From a bacterium (GTDB taxonomy: Bacteria > Eisenbacteria > RBG-16-71-46): a DNA stretch of 30,675 nucleotides. Both the position numbers and the translations under genes were made by a program. The notes beneath the pieces were generated by a model. The model was not told where the DNA came from, ran no database searches, and was given only the letters and a program-made list of their open reading frames with translations. The stretch covers positions 1-30,675 of the forward strand of contig JAYWEM010000009.1 in the NCBI GenBank assembly GCA_043779265.1. Reading direction: 5' to 3'. How positions within the stretch are numbered: position 1 is the stretch's first letter; each line of letters opens with the position of its first letter. Below are positions 6,261 to 30,675 of the stretch, piece by piece.

Positions 6261-6349
6261 GCAGATCCTCCTCTTCAAGGAATCGATGGGCGGGCGGCCG
6301 CCGCTCGGGGCACGACGAGCCTACTCCTCGCCCCGCTTGGGCGGTAGCC

Positions 6350-11228: not shown

Positions 11229-11413
11229 TGGAGGGGAGTCCCCGGGGTCGATTGGAGCGAGTCCCGTCCTCTGCGAACGGGCGCACGAGGCTGGCGAGTA
11301 AGCGGCAGCCGTGTTCGGCCGTCAATCGGACGAGGCCGGGCGCGGAACCCCCGCCCCCCGGCGCGGTCCGGGCCCCCTGCGGCGTGAGCGGCTCTGTGGC
11401 AGAGTCGCGCGCC

Positions 11414-12514: not shown

Positions 12515-12522
12515 GAGGCCCC

Positions 12523-13812: not shown

Positions 13813-15187
13813 ATCATCCGAGGGCTCGGCTGGGAGCGCGACTCTCAAGCGCGCCCTCGGCACCCGGGATGTGGCTCTCCTCACGATGGGCGCTGTCATC
13901 GGCACGGGCATCTTCCTCACGCCCGGCAGCGTCGTCGCCGAGGTCGGAGCCGCCGCCTCGCCCTTCGTCTGGCTCGTCGGCGGCCTGCTGACGCTGGCGG
14001 GCGCGCTGACCTACGCCGAGCTGGGTGCGATGTTCCCGCGGGCGGGCGGCCTCTATCACTTCCTCAAGGAAGCCTACGGGACGGTGTGGGGGTTCCTGTT
14101 CGGTTGGACCTGCCTGCTCGTCATCATGAGTGGCGGCATCGCCGCGATCGCCATCGGGTTCGGCGAGTACCTCGGCGCGTTCGTCCCCGTGTTCTCGAGC
14201 GCGCACATTGTGCTGCACGTGGGCGCCTGGCAGGTGAGCGGCGCGCAGGTGGCCGCGGTCGCGGCGATCGTGCTGCTGACGTGTATCAACCAGATGGGGC
14301 TCGAACCCGCCGCACTGCTACAGGCCGTGTTCACGTTCGCCAAGGTCGGCGCGATCGTGGCGCTCATCGCGTTCGGCGCCATGGCGATGCCCGTCACCGA
14401 GGTCGCGCCTTCATTGCCGGACTTCGCCTCAGACGGCGGACTCGGCCTGCTCGGGGCGTTCGGTGCGGCGATGGTGGCAGCGCTGTGGACGTTCGATGGT
14501 TGGTACGCCGCGACGTTCTCGGCGGGAGAAGTACGCCATCCTTCGCGGGACCTGCCGCGCGGTCTCATCGTGGGCGTGGTCGCGATCTCAGTGCTCTACG
14601 CCGCGCTCTCGCTCGTCTACCTGCGGGCGCTGCCCGAGGCCCAACTCGCAGCGTCGACTCGCGTCGCCGAGGATGCCGCACGCGCGTTGTTCGGCGAGTC
14701 CGCAGCCCGTGCCATGACGCTTGCGGTCGTCGTCTCGGCGTTCGGCTGCCTCGCGGCCACGATCCTCTACTCCTCTCGCGTCTATCAGCCGATGGCCGCC
14801 GATGGTGTGTTCTTCCGGCGCGTCGCGCACATCCATCCCAAGTGGAGGACGCCAGTCGCAGCGCTATGGCTGCAGAGCGGCTGGGCGATCGCACTGGCCC
14901 TGACCGGGAGCTACAGCCAACTCTTCACGTTCGTCACGTTCGGCAGTGTGCTCTTCCATGTCGCCGGCGGCCTCGCGCTGTTCCGTCTGCGAGCCACGCT
15001 TCCCAATGCGCCGCGGCCGTATCGGGCGGCTGGGTTCCCGCTCATCCCGGCGCTGTTCGTCCTCGGGATGCTGCTCCTGACGATCAACACGCTGATGACC
15101 GCGCCGCGCGAGTCGCTGCTCGGGCTGGCGCTGATCGCCGCGGGACTTCCGGCCTACGCGTTCTGGAGGCGGAAGCGCGCCGCTTGA
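13802..15187 (+). CDS. APC-family amino acid permease
   Basis: GAVIGTGIF, YAELGAMFPRAGG, FDGW...GEV, RPYRAAGFP; about 12 hydrophobic segments. Confidence 0.9.
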   Translation: MPAESSEGSAGSATLKRALGTRDVALLTMGAVIGTGIFLTPGSVVAEVGAAASPFVWLVGGLLTLAGALTYAELGAMFPRAGGLYHFLKEAYGTVWGFLFGWTCLLVIMSGGIAAIAIGFGEYLGAFVPVFSSAHIVLHVGAWQVSGAQVAAVAAIVLLTCINQMGLEPAALLQAVFTFAKVGAIVALIAFGAMAMPVTEVAPSLPDFASDGGLGLLGAFGAAMVAALWTFDGWYAATFSAGEVRHPSRDLPRGLIVGVVAISVLYAALSLVYLRALPEAQLAASTRVAEDAARALFGESAARAMTLAVVVSAFGCLAATILYSSRVYQPMAADGVFFRRVAHIHPKWRTPVAALWLQSGWAIALALTGSYSQLFTFVTFGSVLFHVAGGLALFRLRATLPNAPRPYRAAGFPLIPALFVLGMLLLTINTLMTAPRESLLGLALIAAGLPAYAFWRRKRAA

Positions 15188-15223
15188 TCGAGAGGCGTCG
15201 CCTGTGAGCGTGAGAAGTCTCGC

Positions 15224-15853
15224 TCAGGCCGCGCGCCGCGATCCTTCGACCTGGCTTTCATGGTCGTGCACGCCGCGCTGCTTGCGGTGCGCCATGTCGA
15301 GTGCATAGAACTCGCGGAACCTCGCAGCGGATTCATCGGCGTCTGCCGGCACGAGGCCGGCGGTCGGCCGGTCCTCGAGGAGCCGCCGCCAGATCGCCGA
15401 AGCATCGAGTGCCGGGTGATAGTGGACCGAGACTCCGGGCCGCGCCCCGGAGCCGAATGGCGTGTGACCGACGCACACGAACGAGGTGCCGTCGTCATAG
15501 AAGCTCACGCACTCGCTCCACCGTCCCACCACCGGGTGCTCATAAGAGGCGGCGTGGATCGCATTGGTCTCGTGCGCGAACAATGCCACCTTCACCTCGG
15601 GCAGCTCGGTCACGGTGAACCAACCGGCGAGCGTGAAACCGCCCTCTCTCATCTGATCGGCCAGTGCCTGGCGACACGACTCGTCCTCCCAACGCGGGGA
15701 CACCTGCGGCACCAGCGTGATCGTGTCGGGCTGGGCGGCCAAGGCCATTCGCGCGACCGAGCGGACGATCAGCGCGCCGGCCAGTCCACGCAGCGACAAG
15801 GCGAGCAGCGCGATGGCGGCCACGACCGCGTAGGCCATCCAATGAGCGGGCAT
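15224..15853 (-). CDS. Hypothetical protein with N-terminal membrane anchor (start may be 15838)
   Basis: Hydrophobic AYAVVAAIALLALSL followed by a globular domain; fills the gap downstream of arsS on the same strand. Confidence 0.6.
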   Translation of the reverse strand: MPAHWMAYAVVAAIALLALSLRGLAGALIVRSVARMALAAQPDTITLVPQVSPRWEDESCRQALADQMREGGFTLAGWFTVTELPEVKVALFAHETNAIHAASYEHPVVGRWSECVSFYDDGTSFVCVGHTPFGSGARPGVSVHYHPALDASAIWRRLLEDRPTAGLVPADADESAARFREFYALDMAHRKQRGVHDHESQVEGSRRAA

Positions 15854-15926
15854 GGAGTGGACATCGGCACGGAATGGCGATTCCTGCACCCTCGATGCTT
15901 CGCGCCGCAGCGTGAGGCGCCCGGCG

Positions 15927-16973
15927 TCAGCTCTCGATCGCGCCGCCGCACGTGGAGCCGGCGCCGGCGGTGCAGCCGAAGCAGTGGCGGGCGGTGCGGA
16001 CGCGGCGATGCAACTGGCCATTCTCGAGCAGTTCGGTGAGCGTCGTCGGGGCGCCATAACCGAGTGTCATGTCGAGCATCTGATTGAAGTCGCAGTCGAA
16101 CAGCTTGCCGTCGTAGCCCACCGACAGCGTGTTGCGGCACATCAGTCCCTCGACGGCAGCCGGATTGAACGCCTGCACGAGCGTGTCCATGTAGCGCTGG
16201 AGATTCCCCGAGCTCTCGAGGAACTCGAGGAAACGGCTGATCGGCATGTTGGTGATCGCGTAGAGACGGTCGAACACGATGCCATGGCGTGACTCGAGTT
16301 CGCGTCGGTAGTCGCGCTCGAGCGAGGCCTGATTGCCGGGCAGGAACGAGCCGACCGGGTTGTGCACCAAGTCGAGCACGAGGCCATCGCCTCGGCCGTA
16401 ACCGGCCGCGTTGAGTCGGCGCATCGCCTCCATGCTGCGATCGAAGACGCCGCTGCCGCGCTGCGCATCGGTGCCCTGACTGCGGAACGACGGCAGCGAT
16501 GCCACCACCTCGACACGGTGCTCGGTGAGGAAGTCGATGAGGTCGGCCTGTGGCGCGGTGAGCAGGATGGTGAGATTGCAGCGGTCGATCACCCGGCGGC
16601 CGAGCGCGCGCGCCTGTTCGACGAGCCAGCGGAACTGCGGATTCAACTCGGGCGCACCGCCCGTCACATCGAGCGTGGGGATCGGATGGCGCCTCAGCAC
16701 CTCGATCACCTGCTCGGCCGTTTCGCGCGTCATCACCTCGCGGCGGTCGGGCCCGGCATCGACGTGGCAGTGCGCGCACGTCTGGTTGCAGAGCTTGCCG
16801 ACGTTGACCTGAAGTATGTCGATCCGCGTCGTCTCCAGCACGGGGAGCCCGTGCGAGGCGAGCACGCCCTCGAACGCCGGTGCGCCGGTCGCATCGAGCT
16901 GCGCCAGCTGCAGCTCGGGATCGACGAGGCGTGAGGACCGCGACAGGAGTGAAGTGACCGGCGCGCGCGTCAT
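15927..16973 (-). CDS. arsS: Arsenosugar biosynthesis radical SAM protein ArsS (TIGR04167-type, DUF3641 C-terminus)
   Basis: LQVNVGKLCNQTCAHCHVDAGP, DVTGGAPELNP, DRCNLT, MCRNTLSV...DCDFNQML, HCFGCTAGAGSTCGG. Confidence 0.9.
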   Translation of the reverse strand: MTRAPVTSLLSRSSRLVDPELQLAQLDATGAPAFEGVLASHGLPVLETTRIDILQVNVGKLCNQTCAHCHVDAGPDRREVMTRETAEQVIEVLRRHPIPTLDVTGGAPELNPQFRWLVEQARALGRRVIDRCNLTILLTAPQADLIDFLTEHRVEVVASLPSFRSQGTDAQRGSGVFDRSMEAMRRLNAAGYGRGDGLVLDLVHNPVGSFLPGNQASLERDYRRELESRHGIVFDRLYAITNMPISRFLEFLESSGNLQRYMDTLVQAFNPAAVEGLMCRNTLSVGYDGKLFDCDFNQMLDMTLGYGAPTTLTELLENGQLHRRVRTARHCFGCTAGAGSTCGGAIES

Positions 16974-16979
16974 GCTCGG

Positions 16980-17312
16980 CTACATCCCCAGCTTCTCGGC
17001 GATGGTCCGCATCTGGACGCCGTGCGCCAGCGCCGCGCCGCCTCGGATGGCGTTCGCGACGTGCACCGCCTCGGTCATCTGATCCAGGTCGGCTCCCTGC
17101 TTGAGGCACGACTGCGTGTAGGAGTCGATGCAGTAGGGGCACTGGACCGCATGGGAGACCGCCAGCGCGATCAGGCTCTTCTCACGTTCCGAGAGCGCTC
17201 CCTCGGCGAAGACGGCGCTGTAGTACTCGGAGAACTTGGCCCACAGCTCGGGGCGATTCTTGCCCATCTCGGGGAATCGACCGAGATCCTCGGGCGCGTA
17301 GTACGTCTCCAT
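16980..17312 (-). CDS. Arsenosugar biosynthesis-associated peroxidase-like protein (AhpD/CMD family, TIGR04169-type)
   Basis: YYxPEDL...VFAEGALSEREKSLIALAVSHAVQCPYCID...IRGGAALAHGVQM; 6 nt upstream of arsS. Confidence 0.9.
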   Translation of the reverse strand: METYYAPEDLGRFPEMGKNRPELWAKFSEYYSAVFAEGALSEREKSLIALAVSHAVQCPYCIDSYTQSCLKQGADLDQMTEAVHVANAIRGGAALAHGVQMRTIAEKLGM

Positions 17313-17516
17313 GAAGCGGACTCTCCTTGGGCGAAGGGGCGAGTGGATGGGTGCCTCGGGACCGTGCTCCGCACGTTACATGCGGGGCGTCCGGGCGTCT
17401 CCCCGTGCTGCGCCCTCTTCAATGAACGAACGAGTGGGGTGAGTGGGACCCCGATGCACGAAAGCGCCCGCGCCCTCTGGCTTGTCCGCGCCGGGGGCGC
17501 CACGCATCATGCCCCG

Positions 17517-18338
17517 ATGCGAGTGGGAACGGTTCTCCTGGCAACCCTGGGTGCGATGAGTCTGGCGTCGGTTGCACGCTTCGATGCCAAGGCCCGGCCG
17601 CAGGTGCTGCACGTCCAGGCGGCCGCTTCGCTGGCCGCACCCTTCACCGAACTGGCGAGGCTGTTCGAGCGCCGGCGCCCCGGCGTCCACGTCCGACTGA
17701 ACTCGGCCGGCTCGCAGCAACTGGTGGCGCAGATCGAGCAGGGCGCGCGGGCGGATGTGCTCGCCACCGCCGATCTGCAGTGGATGCAGCGTGCGTCCGA
17801 GCGCGGCCTGCTCGCGTCGCCGCCGGTGATCTTCGCCCACAATCGATTGGCGCTGATCGTGCCGCGCAGGAACCTTGCAAGGATCGAGCGCCTCTCGGAC
17901 CTCGCTCGTCCGGGCGTGAAGCTCGTGCTCGGCGCGCCTTCGGTCCCGGTCGGAGGCTATGCGCGGTCGTTCCTCGCGAGATGCACGAGGGACTCCTCGC
18001 TCGGCACGGCCTTCGAGCGATCGGTGCTCGCCAACGTCGTCTCCGAGGAGGAGAACGTGAAGGCGGTGTTCGGCAAAGTGCAACTGGGCGAGGCCGATGC
18101 GGGGATCGTCTATCGCTCGGACCTGAGCGGCGCCTCTTCGCGGCACGTCCGCGAGATCGCGATCCCCTCCCATCTGAATGTGACAGCCTCCTTCCCGATC
18201 GCGATCCTCGCGCGCGGGGGCTCCTCGGGCGCCGCGCAGGCGTTCCTCGATCTGCTGCGCTCCGCCGAGGGCCGCGCCGTGCTCGAGCGTCACGGGCTGC
18301 AGCCCGCAGTGGACGCCGGCACCGGGAGCGCGCGATGA
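17517..18338 (+). CDS. modA: Molybdate ABC transporter substrate-binding protein
   Basis: AAASL, AGSQQLVAQIEQGARADV, VPVGGYA, NVKAV, ADAGIVYRSD. Confidence 0.88.
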   Translation: MRVGTVLLATLGAMSLASVARFDAKARPQVLHVQAAASLAAPFTELARLFERRRPGVHVRLNSAGSQQLVAQIEQGARADVLATADLQWMQRASERGLLASPPVIFAHNRLALIVPRRNLARIERLSDLARPGVKLVLGAPSVPVGGYARSFLARCTRDSSLGTAFERSVLANVVSEEENVKAVFGKVQLGEADAGIVYRSDLSGASSRHVREIAIPSHLNVTASFPIAILARGGSSGAAQAFLDLLRSAEGRAVLERHGLQPAVDAGTGSAR

Positions 18339-19186
18339 CCCTCGACGGCTCGCCTCGGCGGCACGCGTGGCTGGTGCCGGTGGCGATCTCGGCTGCGACC
18401 ATCCTGCTGCTCGCGTTCCTCGCGCTTCCCTTTATCGCCCTGTTGCTGCGCGTCTCGCCGGCGCAACTGGTCTCGAGGCTCGGTGATGTCGTGGTGCTCG
18501 ATGCCCTGCGATTGAGCCTCGAGACGAGCGCCGCCGCCACCGCGATCACGATCGCACTGGGCCTGCCGGCCGCCTATCTGCTGGCGACGCGCGAGTTCCC
18601 CGGCAAACGTCTCGCCGAGGTGCTGATCGACCTGCCGATGGTGCTCCCTCCCACCGTCGCCGGCTTCGCCATGCTGATGGCGTTCGGCCGCGCCGGGCTC
18701 GCCGGCGGCTCGCTCGAGGCGCTCGGCATCACGCTGCCCTTCACGACGCTGGGCGTCGTGCTGGCGCAGGTGTTCATGGCGGTGCCGTTCTTCGTCGGAC
18801 CCGCTCGCGCCGGCATCGCCGGCGTGGATCGCCGTCTGATCGAGGCCGCCTCGACCCTGCGCGCCTCCGAACTGCACACGTTCGTCCGTGTCATCCTGCC
18901 GCTGGCGATGCCGTCGCTGATCGCGGGAACGGCGATGAGCTGCGCCCGCGCACTCGGGGAGTTCGGCGCCACGATCACATTCGCGGGCAACTTCCCCGGC
19001 TCCACCCAGACCATGCCGCTCGCCGTGTACGTCGCGCTGCAGTCCGATCTCGATGCCGCCGTCGTCTTGTCCGTGCTCCTCCTTCTGATGGCCTTCGGTC
19101 TGCTGGCGGGACTGCGTTCCTCGCCCGCCAGCGGATTCTGGAACCGTGCGAATGCTCGACCTCGCGATCACCAGACGACTCGGTGA
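18335..19186 (+). CDS. modB: Molybdate ABC transporter permease
   Basis: DLPMVLPPTVAG, EAASTL, ARALGEFGATITFAGNFPG; ATGA overlap with modA. Confidence 0.9.
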   Translation: MTLDGSPRRHAWLVPVAISAATILLLAFLALPFIALLLRVSPAQLVSRLGDVVVLDALRLSLETSAAATAITIALGLPAAYLLATREFPGKRLAEVLIDLPMVLPPTVAGFAMLMAFGRAGLAGGSLEALGITLPFTTLGVVLAQVFMAVPFFVGPARAGIAGVDRRLIEAASTLRASELHTFVRVILPLAMPSLIAGTAMSCARALGEFGATITFAGNFPGSTQTMPLAVYVALQSDLDAAVVLSVLLLLMAFGLLAGLRSSPASGFWNRANARPRDHQTTR

Positions 19187-20225
19187 CTTCACGCTGCGCG
19201 CCGAGCTCTCGCTCGGCGATCGCGCCCAGCTCGTGCTGGTCGGCGAGAGCGGCTCGGGCAAGTCGACGCTGCTCAAGCTGCTCACCGGCCTGCTGCGCCC
19301 CGAGGACGGCCGCATCGTCGTGGATGGCGAGGTGTGGTTCGATCGCGCATCGGGCACCGATCGGCCGACTGCCGAGCGCTCGATCGGCTACGTCGCGCAG
19401 GACCTGGCGCTCTTCCCCCATCTGAGCGCGGCCGAGAACATCGGATTCGGGCTGCGGGCCAGTGGCCTGAGCGATGCCGAGTCGCGGCCGCGGATCGAGG
19501 CGACGCTCGACCGCCTGTCCATCCGCGATCTCTCGACTCGCAGACCCGGCGAGCTCTCGGGCGGTCAGCAGCAGCGCGTCGCGATCGCGCGTGCCCTGGT
19601 GCTGGAGCCGAGGCTCCTGCTGCTCGATGAACCCCTCTCGGCCCTCGACACGAGATCGCGCCGCGAGATCCGCGTCGAGTTGCGTCGGCTGCTCGAGGAC
19701 CTGCCCTGCATGTCGATCCATGTGACACACAGCCCGGTCGAGGCGCTCGCCCTGGGTGAGCAGATCGCGGTGCTCGAGTCCGGACGCATCAGCCAGAGCG
19801 GCAGCCGCGAAGATCTGATGCGGCATCCGCGTTCGCCCTATGTGGCGGAGTTCCTCGGCGTGAACCTGATCCGCGGCTCGATCGCCGATGGTCCGCCGCA
19901 TGGAAGTGTGAGCATCTCGCTCCCGCATGGCACGCTCGTCGTCACAGGGGATGGAAGCCGCGGTGAAGCCAGCGTCGTCATCCATCCGCGCGACATCACG
20001 CTGTCGCTCGAGCGCACGGTGGGCACGGCGCGCAACGTGTTCGTGGGGCCGATCGAGGAACTGGCGCCCGAGCCCCCGTCCGGCGAGCTGCTGCGCGTCT
20101 CGCTCGGCACAATGCCGCCGCTGATCGCTCAGGTGACGGCGCAGTCGGTTGCGGCGCTGGCGCTCAAGCCGGGCCTCACGGTGTACGCCTCGTTCAAGGC
20201 CGCGGGGGTGGCGGAGGGGCCGTGA
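19152..20225 (+). CDS. modC: Molybdate ABC transporter ATP-binding protein with TOBE domain
   Basis: Walker A GESGSGKST, LSGGQQQR, LLLDEP, C-terminal TARN...VYASFKA. Confidence 0.88.
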   Translation: MLDLAITRRLGDFTLRAELSLGDRAQLVLVGESGSGKSTLLKLLTGLLRPEDGRIVVDGEVWFDRASGTDRPTAERSIGYVAQDLALFPHLSAAENIGFGLRASGLSDAESRPRIEATLDRLSIRDLSTRRPGELSGGQQQRVAIARALVLEPRLLLLDEPLSALDTRSRREIRVELRRLLEDLPCMSIHVTHSPVEALALGEQIAVLESGRISQSGSREDLMRHPRSPYVAEFLGVNLIRGSIADGPPHGSVSISLPHGTLVVTGDGSRGEASVVIHPRDITLSLERTVGTARNVFVGPIEELAPEPPSGELLRVSLGTMPPLIAQVTAQSVAALALKPGLTVYASFKAAGVAEGP

Positions 20226-20835
20226 TCACGCCCCACGTCAGCTGCAGCACGCCGATGTCGGCGGATGCGACATCGCCCGTGTTGTCGGCGTCGCACAGCA
20301 CGCCGATCGCCTCCACTCGTTCGGGCGCCGTGCCGAACGCGGCCGCGAGGTCGGCGCCCAAGTCACGCTCCTCGGAGTGCCACTCGCCGATCGCCGAGGA
20401 GTTCCGCAGCGTGATCACCTTGATCCCGCTCGCATAGGGACTGTTCTGCCAGCGTCCGGGCGCTTCGCCCTGCGCCCATTGATAGAGCAGCCCTTTGGTG
20501 CGCCACGGAAGAATGCTGCGGTGCACCATGATGAACACCGCTGCGGTCCGATCATCGCGGGATCGCACGCGGGTGTCGGCTCCGACCGGGTGCCGGAGCG
20601 CTCGCCATTTCCAACTCAGCGTCGCTCCGCGGACGTCGCGATCGAGCGGCCAGAAGAGCGCCGAGTTCTTCCCCTTCGCCTCGGCTCTCAGCCACGCGGC
20701 GCTCGAGTCGCGCTGCGGCTCGTAGTGAGTGCGGCCGCGATAGGAGACGACGCGCCACTCGGGCGCGAGTGCTCGATCGGTGCCGTAGTCGAGTCGCAGC
20801 GTCATCGCCAGCGCGATCAGCAGGAGCATCGTCAT
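20194..20835 (-). CDS. DUF3047 domain-containing exported protein
   Basis: THYE...LRAEA...LSWKW...DDRTAAVF...LYQWA...SPY...GEWHSEERDLGADLAAAFG...IGVLCDADNTG. Confidence 0.8.
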   Translation of the reverse strand: MTMLLLIALAMTLRLDYGTDRALAPEWRVVSYRGRTHYEPQRDSSAAWLRAEAKGKNSALFWPLDRDVRGATLSWKWRALRHPVGADTRVRSRDDRTAAVFIMVHRSILPWRTKGLLYQWAQGEAPGRWQNSPYASGIKVITLRNSSAIGEWHSEERDLGADLAAAFGTAPERVEAIGVLCDADNTGDVASADIGVLQLTWGVITAPPPPPRP

Positions 20836-20881
20836 CCGAAGCCCAGATCGCCGTGCTGCCGGAGCGTGGTCTCGAGATCGC

Positions 20882-21994
20882 TCACGGCAGGATCCTTGCG
20901 ACGATCGCGAAGGTGAGGGCGCCCAGCACCGCGGCGAGCGGCAGCGTCACGACCCAGGACAGCAGGATGGTGCGGATCATCTTCCAATGGGCCTCGCCCG
21001 TACTCCAGCCGATGCCGATCAGCCCGCCGACGCCGACATGCGTCATCGACACGGGCAGGGCGAACACCGAGGCCGAGAGCACGACCGAGGCGGTGATGGC
21101 ATTCGTGGTGAGTGCCTGGCCCTCGTTGAGTGGCGTGATATTCAGACTCATCGTCTCGCCAACGCGCCGGGCGCCGAACCAGCCGCCCAGCATCATCGTG
21201 GCGGCGACCGCGATGAACGTGACGGTCGGAGGCAGCGTGACACCCGCGAGCGTCGCCCCGAACATCAATGCTGCGATCTTCGGCGTGTCGTTGAGTCCGC
21301 GTGCGAAGCTCTGGAGTCCGGCCGAGAGGAAGTGCGCCATCGAGACCAACTGCCGGGCGCTGACGCCGAGGACGGTGCTCTTCGAGGACGCATCGCAGGT
21401 GTGGACGATCGCAGGGGCTGCGGTGAAGGCGAGCGTGGCGCGCGTCGGAGCCATCGCTTCCTCATGCGTCGCGACGCAGACGCAGGTGGTCGGCTCCACC
21501 CCCATGGCCACGCGCAGGCGGCTCAGCAGCGGATAGAGCACCGCCACGAGCGCGAACGAGAGGATCGGACTCAGCAGGAGCGGCGCCACGAATCGCTGGG
21601 CGAGGCCGCTCATGTGCAACTGACCGGCCGAGGCCATCGCGCCCGCGCCGATCAGTGCGCCGAGGATGGCATGCGTGGTCGAGATCGGAATGCCGATGCG
21701 AGCGGCGAGGCCGACCGTGAGCGCCGTGCTGATCGCGACTCCCATCAGCAACGTCGGCAGTCCGACGAGCTCGGGCGGCAGCAGGCCTCCACCGCTGAAC
21801 GCCGCCGCCAGCCTCGCGCCGAGCACAGTGGCGGCGAGTCCTCCCGCCAGCGTCGTCAGCGTCGCCCAGATCAACGAGGTGCGGTACGACGCCGTCCGGC
21901 TGCCGAAGATCGTCGCGACGCCCTTGAAGTTGTCGTTCGCGCCGTTGGCGGCTGCGACCGCGAGCGCGCCGAGTACCAGCACCCATGCGCTCAT
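20882..21994 (-). CDS. Inorganic phosphate transporter (PiT family)
   Basis: NGANDNFKGVAT, PISTTHA, FARGLNDTPK, LPVSMTH, SWVVTLP. Confidence 0.88.
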   Translation of the reverse strand: MSAWVLVLGALAVAAANGANDNFKGVATIFGSRTASYRTSLIWATLTTLAGGLAATVLGARLAAAFSGGGLLPPELVGLPTLLMGVAISTALTVGLAARIGIPISTTHAILGALIGAGAMASAGQLHMSGLAQRFVAPLLLSPILSFALVAVLYPLLSRLRVAMGVEPTTCVCVATHEEAMAPTRATLAFTAAPAIVHTCDASSKSTVLGVSARQLVSMAHFLSAGLQSFARGLNDTPKIAALMFGATLAGVTLPPTVTFIAVAATMMLGGWFGARRVGETMSLNITPLNEGQALTTNAITASVVLSASVFALPVSMTHVGVGGLIGIGWSTGEAHWKMIRTILLSWVVTLPLAAVLGALTFAIVARILP

Positions 21995-22779
21995 GCGCGC
22001 CGGCCCGCACGGCGTCGGATCCGCGAGTGCGTTCGCGCGATGCGACGCGGGCCCGAGCGATGCGACTTGCGATCAGGCGAGGCGTCAGGCAGTTCGGGAG
22101 CTTCATAGGCGCGCGCCAGCTGGGCAGGCGCAACGCCGAGGTGGTAGGCGAGCATCAGCACCGCGTTCCTCGTGACCTGTCGGAGCGGACCGTGCTTCGA
22201 GAAACGCCGAGCGGACGTGACCACGTACTGCTCGAGCCGAACGAGTCGTCCGGTTCTCGCAAGTCGGCGCGCCAGGTCGACATCCTCGAAGAGCGGCATG
22301 GATCGGAAGCCGCCCGCGGCGTCATAGGCGCGCCTCGTGCAGAACATGCCCTGATCGCCGAGGAACGACGTCGTGAGCCGCAGCCCGCTCATCGCCGTGA
22401 GAGTGGAGAACACGACATGGGAGCGGTCGAAGCGGAGCCGGAAGGCCCCGCCCGAGACTCCGGCGACCGACAGCGCCTGCCGGATCGGACGCGAGGCATC
22501 GACGGGCAGCCGTGTGTCGGCGTGCAGGAAGACCAGCACCTGCCCCTCGGCGCAGGCTGCTCCGCGCTGCAGTTGCTCGCCGCGGCAGGCGCGTGGCGCG
22601 TCCACCCAGATCGCCCCCTCGGCACGAACCGCCTGCTTCACGTCATCGCTCTCATCGTGCGCCGAGACGATGACCTGCACGTCGCCCAGCGCGCAGCGTG
22701 CAGCGCGCACCGCCTCGATCAGGCGAGCGCCCTCGCGGAAGCTCGGGAGGATGACCGAGATCGACTCACCAGTGCCCAT
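21991..22779 (-). CDS. GT2 glycosyltransferase, TIGR04283 (arsenosugar-associated) type
   Basis: LVFLHADTRLP, GGAFRLRFD, GDQGMF, GGF..PLFEDV, VVTSARRF, LGVAPAQLARAY. Confidence 0.82.
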   Translation of the reverse strand: MGTGESISVILPSFREGARLIEAVRAARCALGDVQVIVSAHDESDDVKQAVRAEGAIWVDAPRACRGEQLQRGAACAEGQVLVFLHADTRLPVDASRPIRQALSVAGVSGGAFRLRFDRSHVVFSTLTAMSGLRLTTSFLGDQGMFCTRRAYDAAGGFRSMPLFEDVDLARRLARTGRLVRLEQYVVTSARRFSKHGPLRQVTRNAVLMLAYHLGVAPAQLARAYEAPELPDASPDRKSHRSGPRRIARTHSRIRRRAGRRA

Positions 22780-23521
22780 TGAGTGCCCAGTCATAGTCCA
22801 TGTGGTTGATGCGGGCGTTGGTGTCGATGGCGATCCCCCCGGTCCAGTGCCGAGCGACGAACTGTTGAACCGCGTTCGATCCTCGCCCGAAGTCCGAGCG
22901 GTACCACTTGAAGATCGCGGACAACTCGAGGGGGCCCTTTCCGCCGATCCGATTCTTGGTGCGATCGTGCAGGAAGTCCCGAGTCGCCGCATCGAGGTCG
23001 GCTTCGAGCGTGGCGGCCCGCAGTGCACGCTCGGGAAGCACGGGGCAACTGGCCGACGCACAGTTGAGCACGAAGTGGAGACGGGCCTCGCCGAAGCCCT
23101 TGCGCAGGATGTCGTGCTCGATCTCATTGAGTGAGACGCGCCGCCCACCGCTTCTCCCCTTCTCGCGGAAGAACCCGAGCGTCGGCACGCCGAGCATCTT
23201 GCCGACGTCGAGCACGCTCTTCGATCCCGGGCGTCGGATCACGCCATCGAGCACACGGGCGTTGTAGACGTTGACCCAGAAGGCGATCCGCTCTTCGCGG
23301 GGCCAAGCTTCGGGCCGAGCCTCGCTCGTCTCGGCGAGGAAACGCAGGAGTGGTCCGGGGTCACGGGCCAGTGCGCCGTAGTCCACTTGGCCCGCACTCA
23401 GATGCCGCGCGAGCACGGTGTCGAGCGCCGCCGACGAGACGGGCGCGCCTGCCCGTGCAGCAGGTGCCGCAACGGTCAGGAACATCAGGCCCAGTGCGAG
23501 ACTCGTCGTCCGCATGCGCAT
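22766..23521 (-). CDS. DUF547 domain-containing exported protein
   Basis: Signal peptide; GQVDY, AFWVNVYNA, SLNEIEHDILR, RLHFVLNCASASCP, LSAIFKWYRSDF, YDWALN; GAGGAG SD. Confidence 0.9.
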   Translation of the reverse strand: MRMRTTSLALGLMFLTVAAPAARAGAPVSSAALDTVLARHLSAGQVDYGALARDPGPLLRFLAETSEARPEAWPREERIAFWVNVYNARVLDGVIRRPGSKSVLDVGKMLGVPTLGFFREKGRSGGRRVSLNEIEHDILRKGFGEARLHFVLNCASASCPVLPERALRAATLEADLDAATRDFLHDRTKNRIGGKGPLELSAIFKWYRSDFGRGSNAVQQFVARHWTGGIAIDTNARINHMDYDWALNGHW

Positions 23522-23717
23522 CGAAGGTCCGTCTCCTCGGTTCAGGGGAGTGCCGGGCTCCGAGACTCCCACGGCACGAGGGGATTCCACTGTCCCAATC
23601 GGGCCCCCTCTACGTAAGGAGAGTGAGGGGTGTGACCCCGCGAGGCTCGGAAGCCCAACTCGCCGTTGGACTTGGCGCTTTGGAGCCACGCTGGCCGATC
23701 TCCCCGGGCCCCAGTTC

Positions 23718-23765
23718 CCGCATCTCGCACCACATCCAGCACCCCATCTCGCACCGCATCCAAGA
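23718..23765. repeat. Four imperfect 12-nt tandem repeats
   Basis: CCGCATCTCGCA / CCACATCCAGCA / CCCCATCTCGCA / CCGCATCCAAGA. Confidence 0.75.
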
Positions 23766-23914
23766 GGTTCTGGGTCCCGAGTAGGGTGGTTCGCGTTACG
23801 TGCTGATTCCGATTCCCCCGGGGATCGGCCCCAAGGCTTGATATCCTCGCCGCATCGTCGAAGGACTCGGAGCGCTCCGAGCCCTCGGCCGAACCCATTG
23901 CTCGAGAGGTGACC

Positions 23915-24544
23915 ATGCGCCGGATCCTGAGTCTGTCCCTGCTGATCGCCGCGCTCACGACGGCGCCTGCAGCCGCGCAGCCCCGCATCACCGTCGAGTA
24001 TCGCGACGAACTGCTGCGCGTGACGCTCGAGGGGAACTACGGCGGCACCTACTACCAGGTGTGGCGTTCGGGCGACCTCGTGGGTCAGTACAACCCGCTC
24101 ACTTCGCAGTACACGCTGTGCACCGGCGATTGTTTCCTGACCGACCTCGCCGTGGCGCCGGGCACGACCTACTACTACCGCTTCGACATCCAGGATCCGG
24201 CCACGGGCCAGCTCATCTCCTATGGCCCCTACGCCGTGCTCGTCCCCGATACGCCGTTCGGAGCGACGGTGTCGCCCAATCCCTCGCGTGGCAGCGCACG
24301 CATCGAGTTCTCGCTTCCCGGCAGCAGTCGCCGCGACGCGCCGCTCGAAGTGGACGCCCGGCTGCTCGATCTGCAGGGCCGCACGTTGCGCGTGCTGCAC
24401 TCGGGCGCAGTGCCGCGCGGCCTCTCGTCCATCACGTGGGATGGTCGCGGTGAATCCGGACGTGAGCTGAACGCCGGCATCTACTTCCTGCGAGTCGCCA
24501 CGCCGCTCGGGGTCTCGACGAGCCGCATCGTCCGGGTGCGTTGA
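23915..24544 (+). CDS. Small secreted protein with C-terminal FlgD-Ig/T9SS-like domain
   Basis: Signal peptide; about 95-aa Tyr-rich beta domain with CTGDC; SPNPSRG...[10 protein letters not shown]...WDGRGESG...AGIYF; SD GAGGTG. Confidence 0.82.
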
Positions 24545-26763
24545 GGCCCTCTCGCATCGAGGGCTTCATCGCCGGGTTGCGTCGACGCCCGCTGGCTCTG
24601 CTACTCGGTGCGACGCTCGCGCTCTCGGCGAGCATCTCGTGTGGATCCTCCGGCGGCGCGATCGGCGCGAACGATCACGCGCCCAATCGACTCGCTTCGG
24701 AGAAGAGCCCCTACCTCCTGCAGCACGCCCACAATCCGGTGGACTGGTATCCGTGGGGCGAGGAGGCCTTCGAGCGCGCGAGGCGAGAGGACCGGCCCAT
24801 CTTCCTGTCGATCGGCTACTCGACGTGTCATTGGTGCCATGTGATGGAGCGCGAATCGTTCGAGAACGATTCGGTCGCCGCCCTGATGAATCGCGTGTTC
24901 GTCTGTATCAAGGTGGACCGTGAGGAGCGCCCGGACGTCGATCGCGTGTACATGACCGCGATGCAGACCATGGGCCTGGGCGGGGGCTGGCCGCTCAACG
25001 TGTTCCTCACGCCCGATCGCAAGCCGTTCTTCGGCGGCACCTACTTCCCGCCGGAGACGCGAGCCGGCCGGATCGGCCTGCGTGAGCTGATCCCGCGCAT
25101 CGAACAGGCTTGGCGTGAACGGCGTGCCGACTTGGAGAGCTCGGGCGAACGGGTGATGGCGCACCTGAGTTCGATCGCGTCAGCCGATACCGGGGCGGCG
25201 GACCGCCTGGCCCTCTTCGAGGCGGCCGCTCGCGATCTCGAGGCCGCCGAGGACGCCCTGCACGGTGGCTTCGGCAGTAGCCCCAAATTCCCGACCGCGG
25301 GCAATCTGGCGTTCCTCATGCGTCACTGGGCCCGCGACACGTCCGCCCACTCTCGTTCGCTCGCGCTCGTCCTTCGGCAATTGGACGCGATGCGCGCGGG
25401 TGGCATCCATGACCAGATCGGTGGCGGATTCCATCGCTACACGGTCGATCGCGAATGGCTGACGCCGCACTTCGAGAAGATGCTCTACGACCAGGCGCAA
25501 CTGGCATGGGCGTATATGGAAGCCCATCAGGTGACCGGTCGACCCGAGTACGCCGAGGCCGCACGCGGCATCTTCGACTACGTCGCCCGCGATCTCACGT
25601 CACCTGAGGGGGCGTTCTTCTCAGCCGAGGATGCGGACAGCGAAGGTGAGGAGGGGCTCTTCTATGTCTGGCGGCCCTCGGAGCTCCATGCGGTGCTCGG
25701 AGCGCGCGATGCCGCTCTCGTTGCGATGCGTTACGGCGTGAGCGAACAGGGGAACTTCGAACACGGTGCCTCGATCCTGCACGAGAACGTCCCACTCTCG
25801 GAGGTGGCACGGCGCCAACGACGATCGGTCGATGAGACCTCACGCCTTCTGGCGGCCGCTCGAACCAAGCTGCTGAACGCCCGATCGAAGCGCGTTCGAC
25901 CGCACCTGGACGACAAGGTGCTGACGGCGTGGAACGGGCTCATGATCTCGGCTTACGCGCGCGGCGCGCGCGTGCTGCGGAATCCCGAGTATGCGAAGCG
26001 AGCCGAGCGTGCGGCGGACTTCGTGTGGAGCCGACTCTACGACTCGGGCACGCGCTCGCTCCATCGTCGCTGGCGCGACGGAGAAGCGGCGATGCCGGGG
26101 CAGCTCTCGGACTACGCCGATCTCGCGCTCGGCTTCATCGATCTGCACGGCGCGACCCAGGATCCCAAGTGGCTCGAGCGGGCGGTGCTGCTCACGGAGT
26201 GCCAGATCGAGCGCTTCTGGGACGAGGCCGATGGCGGATTCTTCGACAGCCCCTCCGACGATCCGCATCTCGCGATCCGGCTCAAGGATCACTTCGATGG
26301 CGCGGAGACGGCAGGCAACTCCGTCGCGCTCTCCAATCTGCAGTTGCTCGGCACGCTGCTCGACCGCGAGGAGTGGCTGGTGATGGCCAAGCGCGGATTC
26401 GACCACTTCGCAAGGCGATTGGATGGCCGGGCCGCCGGCATGGCCCAGATGCTGGCAGCGATGTTCCAGGAGCTCTCGGTCCCGCGTCACGTCGTCGTGG
26501 TCGGTGGCCCCGCGGATCCGGCGACCAAGCGCCTGCGAGGGGAGTTCGACTCGCGATTCCTGCCGCACGATCTGCTCATCGTGGCTGGCACCAGCCCACC
26601 GAGGCGTGAGCTCGACCGGCTTCTGCCATTCATCGCACCGCTGACGCCGCAGGGCGGGCGCGCCACCGCGTACGTGTGCGTCGAGCACGCCTGCCGCCTG
26701 CCGACGACGGATGCGCGTGAGTTCGGCGCACAACTCGAGGCGACCCGAGTCACGAGCCGCTAG
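24541..26763 (+). CDS. Thioredoxin domain-containing protein DUF255 (YyaL/SSP411 family)
   Basis: [86 protein letters not shown]. Confidence 0.93.
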
Positions 26764-26789
26764 CATGCGGGGCGTTTCCGAACGTCACA

Positions 26790-27317
26790 TCATCCGGAGA
26801 TCCCGTACTCGCGGCCCTGCCGGATCGACTCGGGCCACGTGCCCTCGAGTTCGACGCCCAGTCCGTGCGCGATCCGGTTCACGTAGTTGAAGTAGGACGC
26901 CACCTGGTTGGCATCGACGATCGCCCGATCATCGAGTCCCAGCGCGCGGAGCGGCTCGAGCGCGTCCTCTCGCAGCTCATGCGGCGAGCGAGTGAGCGCG
27001 ATCGCGTAGTGGCACAGTGCGCGCATGCGCGGTTCGAGTGCATCGAGACGACCGGAGGCGACCGCCTCCGTCAGTGAGGCGTCGCCGGATTCGCGGCCGA
27101 GCGCCTCTCCGTGGTGCGTCACTCAATAGTGGCACTCGTTGGCCGCCGAGACCGCGACCGCCATGGCCTCGCGCTCGGCGCGCGACAGCGGCGACTCCCC
27201 GAACATGACCGCGCGATAGAGTGCCAAGTGAGCGCGTTGCGCTGGGGCATTGAGCGAGTGCGATGCGACGATGTGCGCTTGGCCCTCGGCCGAGGGATCG
27301 ATGCGGACCCAGGTCAT
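26790..27317 (-). CDS. Peroxidase-related AhpD/CMD-family selenoprotein (CHYU; UGA 27123-27125 read as Sec; 175 aa)
   Basis: Two track ORFs are in frame and join as LSRAEREAMAVAVSAANECHY*VTHHGEAL...ASYFNYVNRIAHGLGV; the stop sits at the second Cys of the family CxxC. Confidence 0.85.
27076..27107 (-). promoter_or_regulatory. Putative bacterial SECIS element
   Basis: GAGGCG-c-TC-g-GCCG-[CGAATC]-CGGC-GA-CGCCTC; loop 29 nt after UGA; G at loop position 2. Confidence 0.6.
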
Positions 27318-27372
27318 GTGCTTCCCTCTCGCGTGGAGGCCAACCGCGATACCGCGCGATCGGCCGTGAATG

Positions 27373-27702
27373 TCACTTGGCCGGCAGCGACTCGGCGTAT
27401 TCGGTCGCCAGTCCGATCCAGTGGGCCAGCTGGGCCTTGGTGCGGTAGCCCGCCGCGCTGACGAACACCATGCCCTTCATCGGGCGACCGGTGAAGTCCA
27501 TCGGCCGCGCGCCGGCTCGCTTGAGCGCCGCCTCATGCGCATCGGGGCCGACGCGGACCATGAGGTCCTCCCTCGTCACGCCGCACGCCATGTGGCCGCG
27601 CATCATGAACGCGAGACCACCGAACATGCGCTTCTCGACGACCGACTTGCGCTTGCCCACCACTTCACGCACGCGCTCGGCGAGCGCTTCATCGAATGCC
27701 AT
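27373..27702 (-). CDS. TfoX/Sxy N-terminal domain protein
   Basis: MAFDEALAERVRE...EKRMFGGLAFM..GHMACGV...LMVRVGP...MDFTGRPMKGMVFV. Confidence 0.88.
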   Translation of the reverse strand: MAFDEALAERVREVVGKRKSVVEKRMFGGLAFMMRGHMACGVTREDLMVRVGPDAHEAALKRAGARPMDFTGRPMKGMVFVSAAGYRTKAQLAHWIGLATEYAESLPAK

Positions 27703-27747
27703 GACGCCTCCTCGTGAGCCGCGAGTGGCTGGTGAACGTCGGACCGA

Positions 27748-28791
27748 TCAGCGCAGCAGCGACGTCTCACGGTTCACCGCGACCCACGTGTACCAGTAGG
27801 TATCGAGCCCGGGCAGCACCGAGACGCCATCGATCATGGCGAGGCGCTCGAGCGAGGCGGCCGAGTCGAGCCGAACGGGCTTCGGTCTCCCTCGCCCGCG
27901 CGGCTCGGCGACGAAACCGCCTGCATCGGAGCGGATGAGTCCCCGGGGCACCAGCCAGGCACGGGTGGTCGCGAACACCGAGGAGCCGGGTTCGCGGAAC
28001 AGGAACACCTGCGGCGCCGCCTTCGAACTGTCGCCTGCAGTTGCCAGATAGCCGCCCGCAACCGTCTCGTGCGCAACGGCATAGGCCAGGGACTGCAACC
28101 GGAACGCGAAGATCGGATGCTTGGCCGCCAGCCGCTCGTCCGAGACCTTGGCATTGCGGAATGTGCGCTCGGACGTGAAGTGGTTCTCGTAGTGGTTCGT
28201 GGCCACATGCGACTTGCCCTCGACCGAGAGCACGCGCGTCTCTGGATGGCGACGGCGCCATTCACCCCACATCGCCTTCTCACCCGCCGGTAGCTCCGAG
28301 AGTCCGCGGCCCTCCATCGGGCCGCCGATCGAGGCGCCCTTCATGATCGACCACCAACTGTCGGTCTCGCGGTCGCGCATCACCAGAGCCGCATCCAGCA
28401 GCCCGCCCGAAGCTTCGAAGTTCAGAGTCCGATTCGCGATCGTCCGGTCGTACACGACGCCGGTATTGGCCAGTGGTCACCACACGGCCGCGATCGGGCG
28501 TCCTCCGACCGAGTCGTTCACGATCTCGTGGCCGTTCAGGAGATTCAAGCTGTATGCGCGCGCCTCACCCGCGATCTCGATGCCGAGCACCCACGCGGAG
28601 TCCGGCAGGTCGGCTTCGGCGGCCGAGACGAACTGCGGCGCGAACACCGCGGGGATACCGCCTCTCTCCATCAACATCTGCACGCCCGTCGGAATCGAAT
28701 CGGGGTGTGATGCGGCGTGTGCGAGCGGGGTGATCATCGCGAGGAGCACGGCCGCGAGTGTGGCTGGACGGAGCATCCTGATGGTCGGCAA
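27748..28791 (-). CDS. DUF3179 domain-containing exported selenoprotein (UGA 28477-28479 read as Sec; 347 aa)
   Basis: GGAGG SD + TTG start; signal peptide; GGIPAV, EARAYS, HEIVND..GGRPIAAVW*PLANTGVVYDR...FEASGGL...LVMRDRETDSWW; the stop aligns with the first Cys of family CPLC. Confidence 0.85.
28444..28463 (-). promoter_or_regulatory. Putative bacterial SECIS element
   Basis: CCG-gc-GTCG-[TGTA]-CGAC-CGG; loop 22 nt after UGA; G at loop position 2. Confidence 0.55.
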
Positions 28792-28803
28792 GGTTACCTC
28801 CTG

Positions 28804-29778
28804 CTACATCCAGCGCATGCGCTTGAACACGATCAGTTGCAGGATCGCAACGGCGATCAAGATGCCACACACGATGCCGAAGGCGGATGCGTTGTCGGCG
28901 CCGGGCATGCCGCCGACGTTGATTCCCAGCAGCCCGGTCAAGAGTCCCAGCGGCAGGAAGATGCCGGTGATGATCGAGAGCGCGTACATCGTGCGGTTCA
29001 TGCGCTCCGAGAGCCGGCTGTTGAGTTCCTCCTGGGTAACCGCGGCGCGGTCACGCGCGGAGTCGAGGTCCTCGACATGGCGCGTGGTGCGGTCGGCGAT
29101 CTCGCGCAGGTGCACGCGGCTGACATCATCGAGCCACGCGACGCGCTCGGCGTGCAGTTGGGCCACCGCATCGCGCTGCGGAGCGATGTAGCGGCGCAGC
29201 ATGACGATCTTGCGCCTCATGGTTCCGATTGTGGAGCGCAACGTGCGACTATCGTCGTCTGCCACGTCGTCATCGAGTGCATCGACCTGATCGTCGAGTT
29301 CGGCGAGCACGGTGCCGATGCGGTTCGTCAGCCCCTCGGCGATGTCGACCAGCAACTCGGTACTCGTCTTGGGTCCCTGCCCTGCCGCCAGTGCGGCCCG
29401 AAGGGCGTCGATCGCCATGACGCGCCGCTGGCGCGTGGTGATGACGCGCCTCTCATCGACGAACATGCGGATCGAGACCATATCCTCGGTCTCGGCGCCC
29501 GGGTTCATGTTGACGCCCCGCAGCACCACGAGCAGGCCGCCGTGCCCGGCGACGCTGCGCGGCCGGGTCTCCTCGGCCAGCAGCGCGAGCGTGATCGTCT
29601 CATCGAGGCCGCTGCGTTCCTCGAGCCAGCTCGCAGCCTGGGGATGCGAGTAGTCGAGGTGGACCCAGATCGTCCCGGCTTCCGGCGTCCATTGGTGGAT
29701 GCCGTTCCAGTCGAGCGGCTTACCACCACCTTGTCCATCGAGCACGAAGGCGGCGACGAGGCCGGCGTTGTCGGTCAT
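28804..29778 (-). CDS. zntB: Zinc transporter ZntB (CorA superfamily)
   Basis: WVHLDY, LLAEETRPR, LRGVNMNPGAETEDMVSIR, LRRYIAPQRDA, GLLGINVGGMPG (GIN motif); GGAGG SD. Confidence 0.92.
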   Translation of the reverse strand: MTDNAGLVAAFVLDGQGGGKPLDWNGIHQWTPEAGTIWVHLDYSHPQAASWLEERSGLDETITLALLAEETRPRSVAGHGGLLVVLRGVNMNPGAETEDMVSIRMFVDERRVITTRQRRVMAIDALRAALAAGQGPKTSTELLVDIAEGLTNRIGTVLAELDDQVDALDDDVADDDSRTLRSTIGTMRRKIVMLRRYIAPQRDAVAQLHAERVAWLDDVSRVHLREIADRTTRHVEDLDSARDRAAVTQEELNSRLSERMNRTMYALSIITGIFLPLGLLTGLLGINVGGMPGADNASAFGIVCGILIAVAILQLIVFKRMRWM

Positions 29779-29864
29779 CGGAACGGCCTCCATGCGGTGA
29801 GTCGGGTCAGGCGATCGATTGCGAGCGCTCGGACCATACGCCACGGCGGGGCAGGTTGCAGCAG

Positions 29865-29895
29865 AGAGGCCCGGGCATTCAGCGCCCGGGCCTCT
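29865..29895 (-). terminator. Hairpin/terminator after the FlgD-domain gene
   Basis: Perfect 12-bp inverted repeat AGAGGCCCGGGC-N7-GCCCGGGCCTCT, 26 nt after the stop; weak U-tract. Confidence 0.65.
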
Positions 29896-29921
29896 TCGCT
29901 TGCGACTCTCGAAGCGTTCGG

Positions 29922-30674
29922 CTATTCGAGCATGATCACCTTGCGCATGGTCGACTCGTTGCCCGCACGGAATCGGACCATGTAGATGCCGGGCGTCAGC
30001 TTGCGGCCCAGATCATCATCGCCCGACCACGCGATGCGATGCAGCCCCGCGCCGAGCCGTCCGGTCGAGAGCGTGCGCACCTTCGCGCCGTGCAGGTCGT
30101 ACACCTCGAGCGCGGCCTCCTGCTCGGCCGACAACTCGAACTCGAGTGCCGTGCCGCCACGCGCCGGGTTCGGGAACGCGCCGCGGAAGCTGGTGCGCTG
30201 CGCCGAGGTCCCGGGAGCGTCCACCGTGCCGGTCACGAATTGCAGGTTATAGCTGCCGTTGTAGCTGAAGCGATTGCGATGGGACTTCCACACGGAGACG
30301 CAGTAGTAGCCCGCCGTCGTGATATCCACGATCACCGACTCCATCCGATTCTCCGGTTCGAGCCACGCCAGTCCACCCGGGAAGGCGTCGGACTTGCCGC
30401 CATAGACCATGTCCTCGCCATGGAGCGTGAGGCCCCAGTCCACGCTGCCGGCCTCCGGCATCACGTCGATCTCCCAGCGGCCCGGCGTGAAGTAGACCTC
30501 GTGCAGGTTCATCACGCGGCCACCGAGCACGTTGAAGGGCCCATGCATGCCGGCCGGGTTGAACCCGAGATAGGGCGCGGTCACGACCTCGGCGTGATAC
30601 GCGGCGGTCCCCGTGCCGTAGCGGACGATGCCGACGTCGAACGCGCGGAATCCCGTTCGATTGAAGTTGGCGAT
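29922..30674 (-). CDS. C-terminal part of a secreted protein with FlgD-Ig/T9SS-like domain (5' end outside window)
   Basis: Frame open to the window edge (IANFNRTGFRAFDVG...); FPNPARGG...VYDLHGAKVRTL...WSGDDDLG...PGIYM. Confidence 0.82.
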   Translation of the reverse strand: MANFNRTGFRAFDVGIVRYGTGTAAYHAEVVTAPYLGFNPAGMHGPFNVLGGRVMNLHEVYFTPGRWEIDVMPEAGSVDWGLTLHGEDMVYGGKSDAFPGGLAWLEPENRMESVIVDITTAGYYCVSVWKSHRNRFSYNGSYNLQFVTGTVDAPGTSAQRTSFRGAFPNPARGGTALEFELSAEQEAALEVYDLHGAKVRTLSTGRLGAGLHRIAWSGDDDLGRKLTPGIYMVRFRAGNESTMRKVIMLE

Positions 30675-30675
30675 C

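Follow-up and report, generated by a model that had tools for sequence, protein, structure and literature searches.

What might explain why two genes of one short run, in a bacterium of the Eisenbacteria lineage RBG-16-71-46, each carry an in-frame TGA where homologues encode cysteine? The run lies in the window, by which we mean the whole 30,675-nt stretch that was analyzed (GenBank contig JAYWEM010000009.1, our contig C9, of the 3.43-Mb, 92% complete assembly GCA_043779265.1). It consists of four genes on the complementary strand: a ZntB-like CorA-family metal transporter of 324 amino acids (28804..29778; PF01544, E 1e-71), a DUF3179 selenoprotein of 347 amino acids (27748..28791; PF11376, E 1e-52), a 109-amino acid protein with the TfoX N-terminal domain (TfoX_N) and no selenocysteine (Sec; 27373..27702; PF04993, E 1.5e-16), and an AhpD-like peroxidase-related selenoprotein of 175 amino acids (26790..27317; TIGR01926, 133.8 bits against a cut-off of 81.8). 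A first-pass annotation had proposed a possibly undescribed selenium module. We read the run as two selenoproteins of known families, likely acting separately, in a stretch that was assembled locally, is probably transcribed as one unit and consists of genes with a patchy distribution, and we give this reading a probability of about 65%. The four-gene order is not a conserved selenoprotein operon, and is seen only in the window and in near strains. The run itself is biologically ordinary, and the leads that it offers are at the level of the families.

The layout is as the first-pass annotation described it: four co-oriented genes separated by 12, 45 and 55 nt, the first gap applying to a TTG start for the DUF3179 gene, with AGGAGG upstream (the first ATG would leave 27 nt). 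A purine-rich ribosome-binding site precedes each gene, and the two TGAs are 1.35 kb apart, within the 1.4 kb that had been claimed. Judged by orientation and spacing, co-transcription of the four genes is plausible. The co-orientation, the short gaps, the ribosome-binding sites and the lack of any terminator-like site on that strand, together with the presence of two of the gene junctions in a related strain from another study, are compatible with the proposal of a conserved four-gene, selenium-dependent zinc/metalloid-redox module. That proposal is nevertheless very improbable, since its members do not travel together. We pooled 254 DUF3179 loci (2.88 Mb): 80 from GTDB genomes, mostly Poribacteria and not independent of each other; 51 of 52 metagenome loci, one without a DUF3179 match having been dropped; 20 from the phylum of the host; 60 from Acidobacteriota, chosen mainly for a TGA; and 43 without TGA, three of these chosen for proximity to an AhpD gene. 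Flank was sufficient on both sides in 86 of the first 132. Neither zntB nor tfoX was found near any of the 254, a DUF255 gene was found near one and AhpD-like genes near 10. The 20 best AhpD loci of Acidobacteriota are all without a nearby zntB, tfoX or DUF3179 gene, and the only other zntB of the phylum adjoins corA and an AlgX-like gene. Each of the four genes is patchy and unlinked among 40 relatives: DUF3179 is found in two (neither with TGA), the AhpD-like gene in 28, and ZntB only as CorA-type paralogues of 21-31% identity. More widely, 29 of 206 genomes of the phylum encode DUF3179, and two of 88 in the family of the host. The neighborhood profiling that the first-pass annotation had suggested thus gave the outcome that it had itself named as telling against the module: gene order is not conserved. 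At one locus (L156) a DUF255 gene, DsbD, an extracytoplasmic function (ECF) sigma factor, a Sec-encoding DUF3179 gene and a Sec-encoding AhpD gene are found together; outside the window, no other locus combines three of the window genes.

It is very likely that the UGA of the DUF3179 gene is read as Sec. The protein scores 179.8 bits against a PF11376 cut-off of 27, and the TGA (28477..28479, complementary strand) encodes U105 in the motif W-U-P-L-A-N, aligned with the cysteine of homologues; when database proteins are aligned, 89% have Cys in this column. A TGA is found at the same column in most of the homologous loci, from Poribacteria, Acidobacteriota, Chloroflexota, Latescibacterota and others. 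Among 199 distinct DUF3179 sequences U is the commonest residue here (UxxC in 114, UxxA in 40, UxxT in 12), a measure of conservation and not of family-wide frequency, because most of the underlying loci were found with the window protein or chosen for their TGA. This agrees with the earlier argument that the two UGAs are beyond chance nonsense mutation. The candidate Sec insertion sequence (SECIS)-like hairpin (28444..28463, complementary strand) has 7 bp, one bulge and a CGUGU loop with a G early in it, and it forms when folded, although by energy alone it does not exceed shuffled sequences. Its register, nucleotides 17-23 pairing with 29-35, is 96% paired in 86 distinct Sec 40-mers, with base swaps on both sides of the stem, versus 54% in 14 Cys 40-mers and 18-44% in shifted registers. 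Minimum-energy folding of the whole region did not single out this element (z +0.3 to +1.05); the comparative register alone did so.

The residue at this position varies in several other DUF3179 proteins. One member of the UxxA clade (L350, G225:C36) has tryptophan in place of Sec, W-W-P-L-A-N, leaving the motif without cysteine or Sec. In a class-level relative (L327, G086:C1, about 6470-6901) there is a U-P-L-A-N piece, 68% identical to the N-terminal part only of the window protein, which is apparently broken or truncated. In many DUF3179 proteins of the phylum of the host (L329-L336, L289-L317) the place of Sec or Cys is taken by Ser, Asn or His (SPLC, NPLC, HPLC, SPLS), which suggests non-redox or single-Cys forms.

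The UGA of the AhpD-like gene (27123..27125, complementary strand; E-C-H-Y-U) is likely also read as Sec. A TGA is found at this column in 33 distinct homologues, and most of the Acidobacteriota matches carry it. The active site motif is E-x6-V-S-x2-N-E-C62-H-Y-U65-x2-H-H, of the CxxU type, and homologues in the PDB (6k40, 2pfx and 3c1l, E 1e-25 to 1e-24) have CxxC at the equivalent place. The family register of the SECIS-like hairpin, which in this copy falls at 27096..27112 on the complementary strand and retains four of six stem pairs, is 85% paired in 33 Sec sequences versus 24% in 20 Cys sequences. A stronger alternative hairpin can form further downstream (27072-27111, z -2.98). For both genes the reading frame is open and conserved past the UGA, and standard gene calls split both, so that their annotation needs correcting. 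The genome has two further TIGR01926-like genes, one with the motif C-P-Y-U and a canonical hairpin, the other without a stop inside the match (G000:C175:9434-9913 and G000:C81:551-952).

Neither family is new, and in this respect the undescribed module of the first-pass annotation is not supported. DUF3179 (UxxC/T) and AhpD-like proteins (COG2128 or TIGR01926, CxxU) are tabulated as selenoproteins in two reviews (PMC9312934, PMC13188914), and DUF3179 is listed in a table of PMC9230427. AhpD-like 1 has 299 members in the Global Ocean Sampling (GOS) survey (PMC2398784) and seven in Olavius symbionts (PMC1976440), and the name "DUF3179 domain-containing (seleno)protein" is in use in RefSeq. The window DUF3179 protein resembles published members in its Pfam score over the cut-off, in Sec at the first Cys position of CPLC and in the family hairpin in register; it differs in its U-P-L-A motif, a variant within the family that departs from UxxC/T and is absent from the accessible text of both reviews, and in a chain that is devoid of cysteine. 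The AhpD-like protein, with a score over the cut-off, C-x-x-U, an upstream Glu, downstream His-His and Cys homologues in the PDB, shows no difference of kind, only a weakened SECIS-like stem. Operons such as grdAB, prdBC, frhA-frhD-hdrA, SAO and Tso (PMC13188914, section 9) likewise have two selenoprotein genes on one probable transcript, but these are recurrent sets, whereas the window order was met once and its products are likely in different compartments. In the literature covered, with few subscription journals and no supplements, we found no paper that treats selenocysteine in Eisenbacteria, the pairing of DUF3179 with AhpD or a Rieske-like fold for DUF3179.

Can this genome decode UGA as Sec? 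Here and in the provenance of the genes are several of the points that weigh against our reading. The genome encodes SelA (E 2e-140) and SelB (over cut-off), but selD and the gene for tRNA-Sec (selC) were not found in the 92% complete assembly. The AhpD hairpin of this copy is weak at the family register, with two mismatches and a fold in the window of z +0.89. Hairpins of the UxxA clade of DUF3179 are no stabler than synonymous shuffles (mean z -0.14), and RNAalifold found no covariation in the stem inside that clade. One or both UGAs might accordingly be taken as true stops, in pseudogenes or in Sec genes that were acquired but are not decoded. We consider this highly unlikely: the frames past the UGAs are open and conserved, the same TGA is retained in dozens to more than 100 homologues, and the missing sel genes fall at a break between contigs. 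Of the 40 relatives, 37 have selD, usually adjacent to tRNA-Sec. In three relatives selD-selC is followed by a gene whose orthologue here is truncated by the start of contig C19 (G000:C19), so that an assembly gap is the best reading of the absence of selD and tRNA-Sec. An origin outside the host lineage is likely for the DUF3179 and AhpD copies. In midpoint-rooted trees the DUF3179 protein falls inside a clade of 28 UxxA proteins, mainly from Acidobacteriota (support 0.94), and the AhpD protein groups with two Acidobacteriota CHYU copies (support 0.91), apart from the other Sec paralogue of the host and the Cys clade of the host family. The likelihood of an outside origin depends on this midpoint rooting, and codon usage and GC content of the four genes fall inside the range of neighboring genes, with no compositional sign of recent transfer. 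Contigs of two sequencing runs, from which this DNA may itself derive, are identical to the window over 25470-30675, and among the matches listed for a run from a second study there are short pieces bridging the zntB-DUF3179 (18 differences in 213 nt) and tfoX-ahpD (one in 247) junctions, so the gene order persists at least in near strains. The enzyme activities of both selenoproteins are predictions, and adjacency of DUF3179 and AhpD-like genes exceeds random placement, so that more than chance may have brought them together. A de novo search of the genome for frames that read through TGA was dropped: its 85 candidates were noisy and did not include the AhpD gene.

How strong is this adjacency? 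In a sample of 401 Acidobacteriota genomes, 145 have DUF3179 (including the unpublished G233) and 113 have AhpD-like genes. Among the matches listed, with 149 of 241 DUF3179 matches usable, both genes occur in 69 genomes and are at most 2 kb apart in four, versus 0.16 expected; the nominal Poisson p of 3e-5 overstates the significance, because the test presumes uniform genomes and independent kin. An AhpD-like gene lies within 1 kb at eight of the 254 DUF3179 loci, two of the eight having been fetched as known neighbors. Four of these close pairs are Sec-Sec (L156, L393, L357 and L178), in tandem, reversed, convergent and interleaved layouts, and mixed and Cys-Cys pairs are found as well (L164, L431 and L432). 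The association is real but weak and non-obligate, affecting a few percent of loci, and its measurement is what is new here. One could suppose that DUF3179 and the AhpD-like protein form a loosely coupled trans-envelope redox unit that has been joined repeatedly, with zntB and tfoX as passengers. The excess of adjacent pairs, the different layouts, which suggest independent origins, and the reported co-location of Prx-like and AhpD-like selenoprotein genes (PMC13188914, section 9) speak for such a unit. We think it possible but unlikely, because the genes lie apart in 65 of the 69 genomes, the expectation carries the presumptions and the partial coverage just given, and plain clustering of stress or redox genes may produce the same excess. 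Of 20 genomes from the UxxA clade of the window protein, moreover, 19 carry an AhpD-like gene, in no case within about 6 kb of DUF3179, and the neighbors of DUF3179 differ from genome to genome. The adjacency, though low, exceeds chance and hints that the two families share a role under stress.

If the two selenoproteins are best regarded as acting separately, what might each do? The predicted structure of the DUF3179 protein (pLDDT, the predicted local distance difference test, 95.9) models as tandem Rieske-like β domains without cluster ligands, with the Sec on a hairpin loop. No conserved Cys or His is present at the positions aligned to the four Rieske cluster ligands (CxH...CxxH), which sets the model apart from Rieske ferredoxins and NirD-like cluster-less Rieske domains, as do its predicted tandem duplication, its predicted export and the modeled position of its Sec. 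Foldseek gave no match to the model at E<=0.001, and PDB sequence searches gave none for the protein or for a 118-sequence profile. DUF3179, for which these sequence searches found no relative of solved structure, may be a cluster-less Rieske-like redox protein. The hydrophobic, signal-peptide-like N-terminus supports the earlier suggestion of a periplasmic selenoprotein, and the Sec is the sole Cys/Sec residue of the chain, making the UxxA branch a clean test case for the role of Sec in the envelope. An N-terminal AhpC-TSA/Redoxin domain is present in five of 15 long DUF3179 homologues, and DsbD or thioredoxin/peroxiredoxin genes adjoin several DUF3179 loci. SelB would read each UGA by way of the hairpin that belongs to it. 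The DUF3179 protein, once exported, would present a single selenol on the hairpin loop of its cluster-less domain, to be oxidized by an oxidant or a disulfide of the envelope; having no resolving Cys, it would be re-reduced by a thiol partner of the TlpA/Dsb type. The AhpD-like protein, which had been called a cytoplasmic seleno-peroxidase and fits that description as a CxxU peroxidase-related protein, would cycle a Cys62-Sec65 selenenyl-sulfide in the cytoplasm as a peroxidase-type enzyme or disulfide reductase. The ZntB-like protein would move Zn2+ or another divalent cation and TfoX_N would be a passenger, neither needing selenium. A bolder picture, which we regard as speculative and rather unlikely, would have the lone selenol of the exported two-domain protein replace iron-sulfur chemistry, with a cytoplasmic AhpD-type selenoprotein repeatedly paired with it; the two would make up an undescribed trans-envelope defense, one half outside and the other inside, directed at oxidants or at thiophilic metalloids, for instance arsenic, and this locus would be one independent assembly.

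Two DUF3179 neighborhoods elsewhere deserve mention. On a Thiothrix plasmid (L474, NZ_CP133216.1) its neighbors encode a GDCCVxC (seleno)protein, a 777-amino acid thioredoxin-domain protein and two cytochrome c peroxidases. A metagenome contig has, as neighbor of a UxxA DUF3179 gene, a match to the thiol-activated cytolysin family (L138:10202-11686).

Arsenic also has a place in the window. The first-pass annotation had set the run near an arsS/PiT/modABC cluster. The cluster is there, at 15927-about 23520, with arsS and TIGR04169, then DUF547, TIGR04283, PiT and DUF3047, all on the complementary strand, and modABC on the forward strand between these blocks; its link with the run is weak. Could both selenoproteins be satellites of an arsenosugar (ArsS) pathway, handling As(III) or thiol-arsenic adducts? 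The cluster starts about 3.3 kb from the run (ArsS itself is 9.8 kb away), arsenosugar-type genes occur near five of the 254 DUF3179 loci (L125, L134, L375, L387 and L432), at one of which (L432) a tandem DUF3179-AhpD pair stands beside PiT and TIGR04283 genes, one of 15 long homologues is a DUF3179-ArsP permease fusion, and the nearest AhpD homologue abuts a DUF547 gene (L476). We judge the idea improbable. Such genes are absent from 249 of the 254 loci and from every UxxA-clade locus, and the five come without a per-genome background rate. The ArsS cluster already has its own AhpD-family partner, TIGR04169; ArsS in the window is a Cys form (GSTCGG, with Cys at the Sec site); and arsM is on a separate contig (C100). 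Two opposite-strand genes intervene between cluster and run, one of them a DUF255 gene that is common to 39 of 40 relatives. At the L432 locus (G421:C1) the tandem DUF3179 (CPLC) and AhpD (CRYC) genes come after genes for PiT, a flavin disulfide reductase, a TIGR04283 glycosyltransferase and a nucleoside phosphorylase, and are followed by two MerR genes.

The remaining members of the run are likewise patchy. The ZntB-like protein scores 286.8 bits with NF007092, just below the curated cut-off of 292, and is therefore filed as ZntB-like. It resembles ZntB in its full-length match, in a GxN loop motif (GIN at 285) and in being nearer to ZntB than to CorA (TIGR00383, 114.9 against a cut-off of 200.75), and differs in its slightly low score; its substrate is putative. 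Its best database matches are 75-78% identical, with a Krumholzibacteria-named ZntB at 67%, and an orthologue was found in one of 205 other genomes of the phylum and in none of 88 from the family of the host. TfoX is present in 11 of the 40 relatives, in unrelated contexts. The DUF255 gene (24541/24703-26763, forward strand; PF03190), outside the run, encodes a thioredoxin fold with CHWC and a glycosidase-like part. It converges on the ahpD end of the run, as the first-pass annotation had stated; the gap is 26 nt, and at 29 relative DUF255 loci examined none of the four genes lies beside it. A same-genus DUF255 match (L264, G001:C162) has one TGA inside.

A promoter and terminator scan of 26500-30675 gave nothing resembling a promoter, and its single terminator-like site is no more than chance would give. 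The scan did not call a perfect GC-rich inverted repeat, a 13-bp hairpin without a U tract (-32.6 kcal/mol, z -6.1), that lies between zntB and its upstream gene at 29865..29895 on the complementary strand and is a possible transcript boundary. A repeat search of 13000-30675 showed, among the repeats listed, only diverged, chance-type ones and none bounding the run, and an Rfam scan of the window found tRNA-Val alone. Elsewhere in the window, a Rieske ring-hydroxylating oxygenase alpha subunit gene precedes genes for a di-heme cytochrome c-like protein and an amino-acid permease (11228-13812), and four proteins with FlgD-Ig C-terminal sorting-type domains (4926-6278, 7911-11228, 23909-24544 and 29922-30675) are encoded on this one 30-kb contig.

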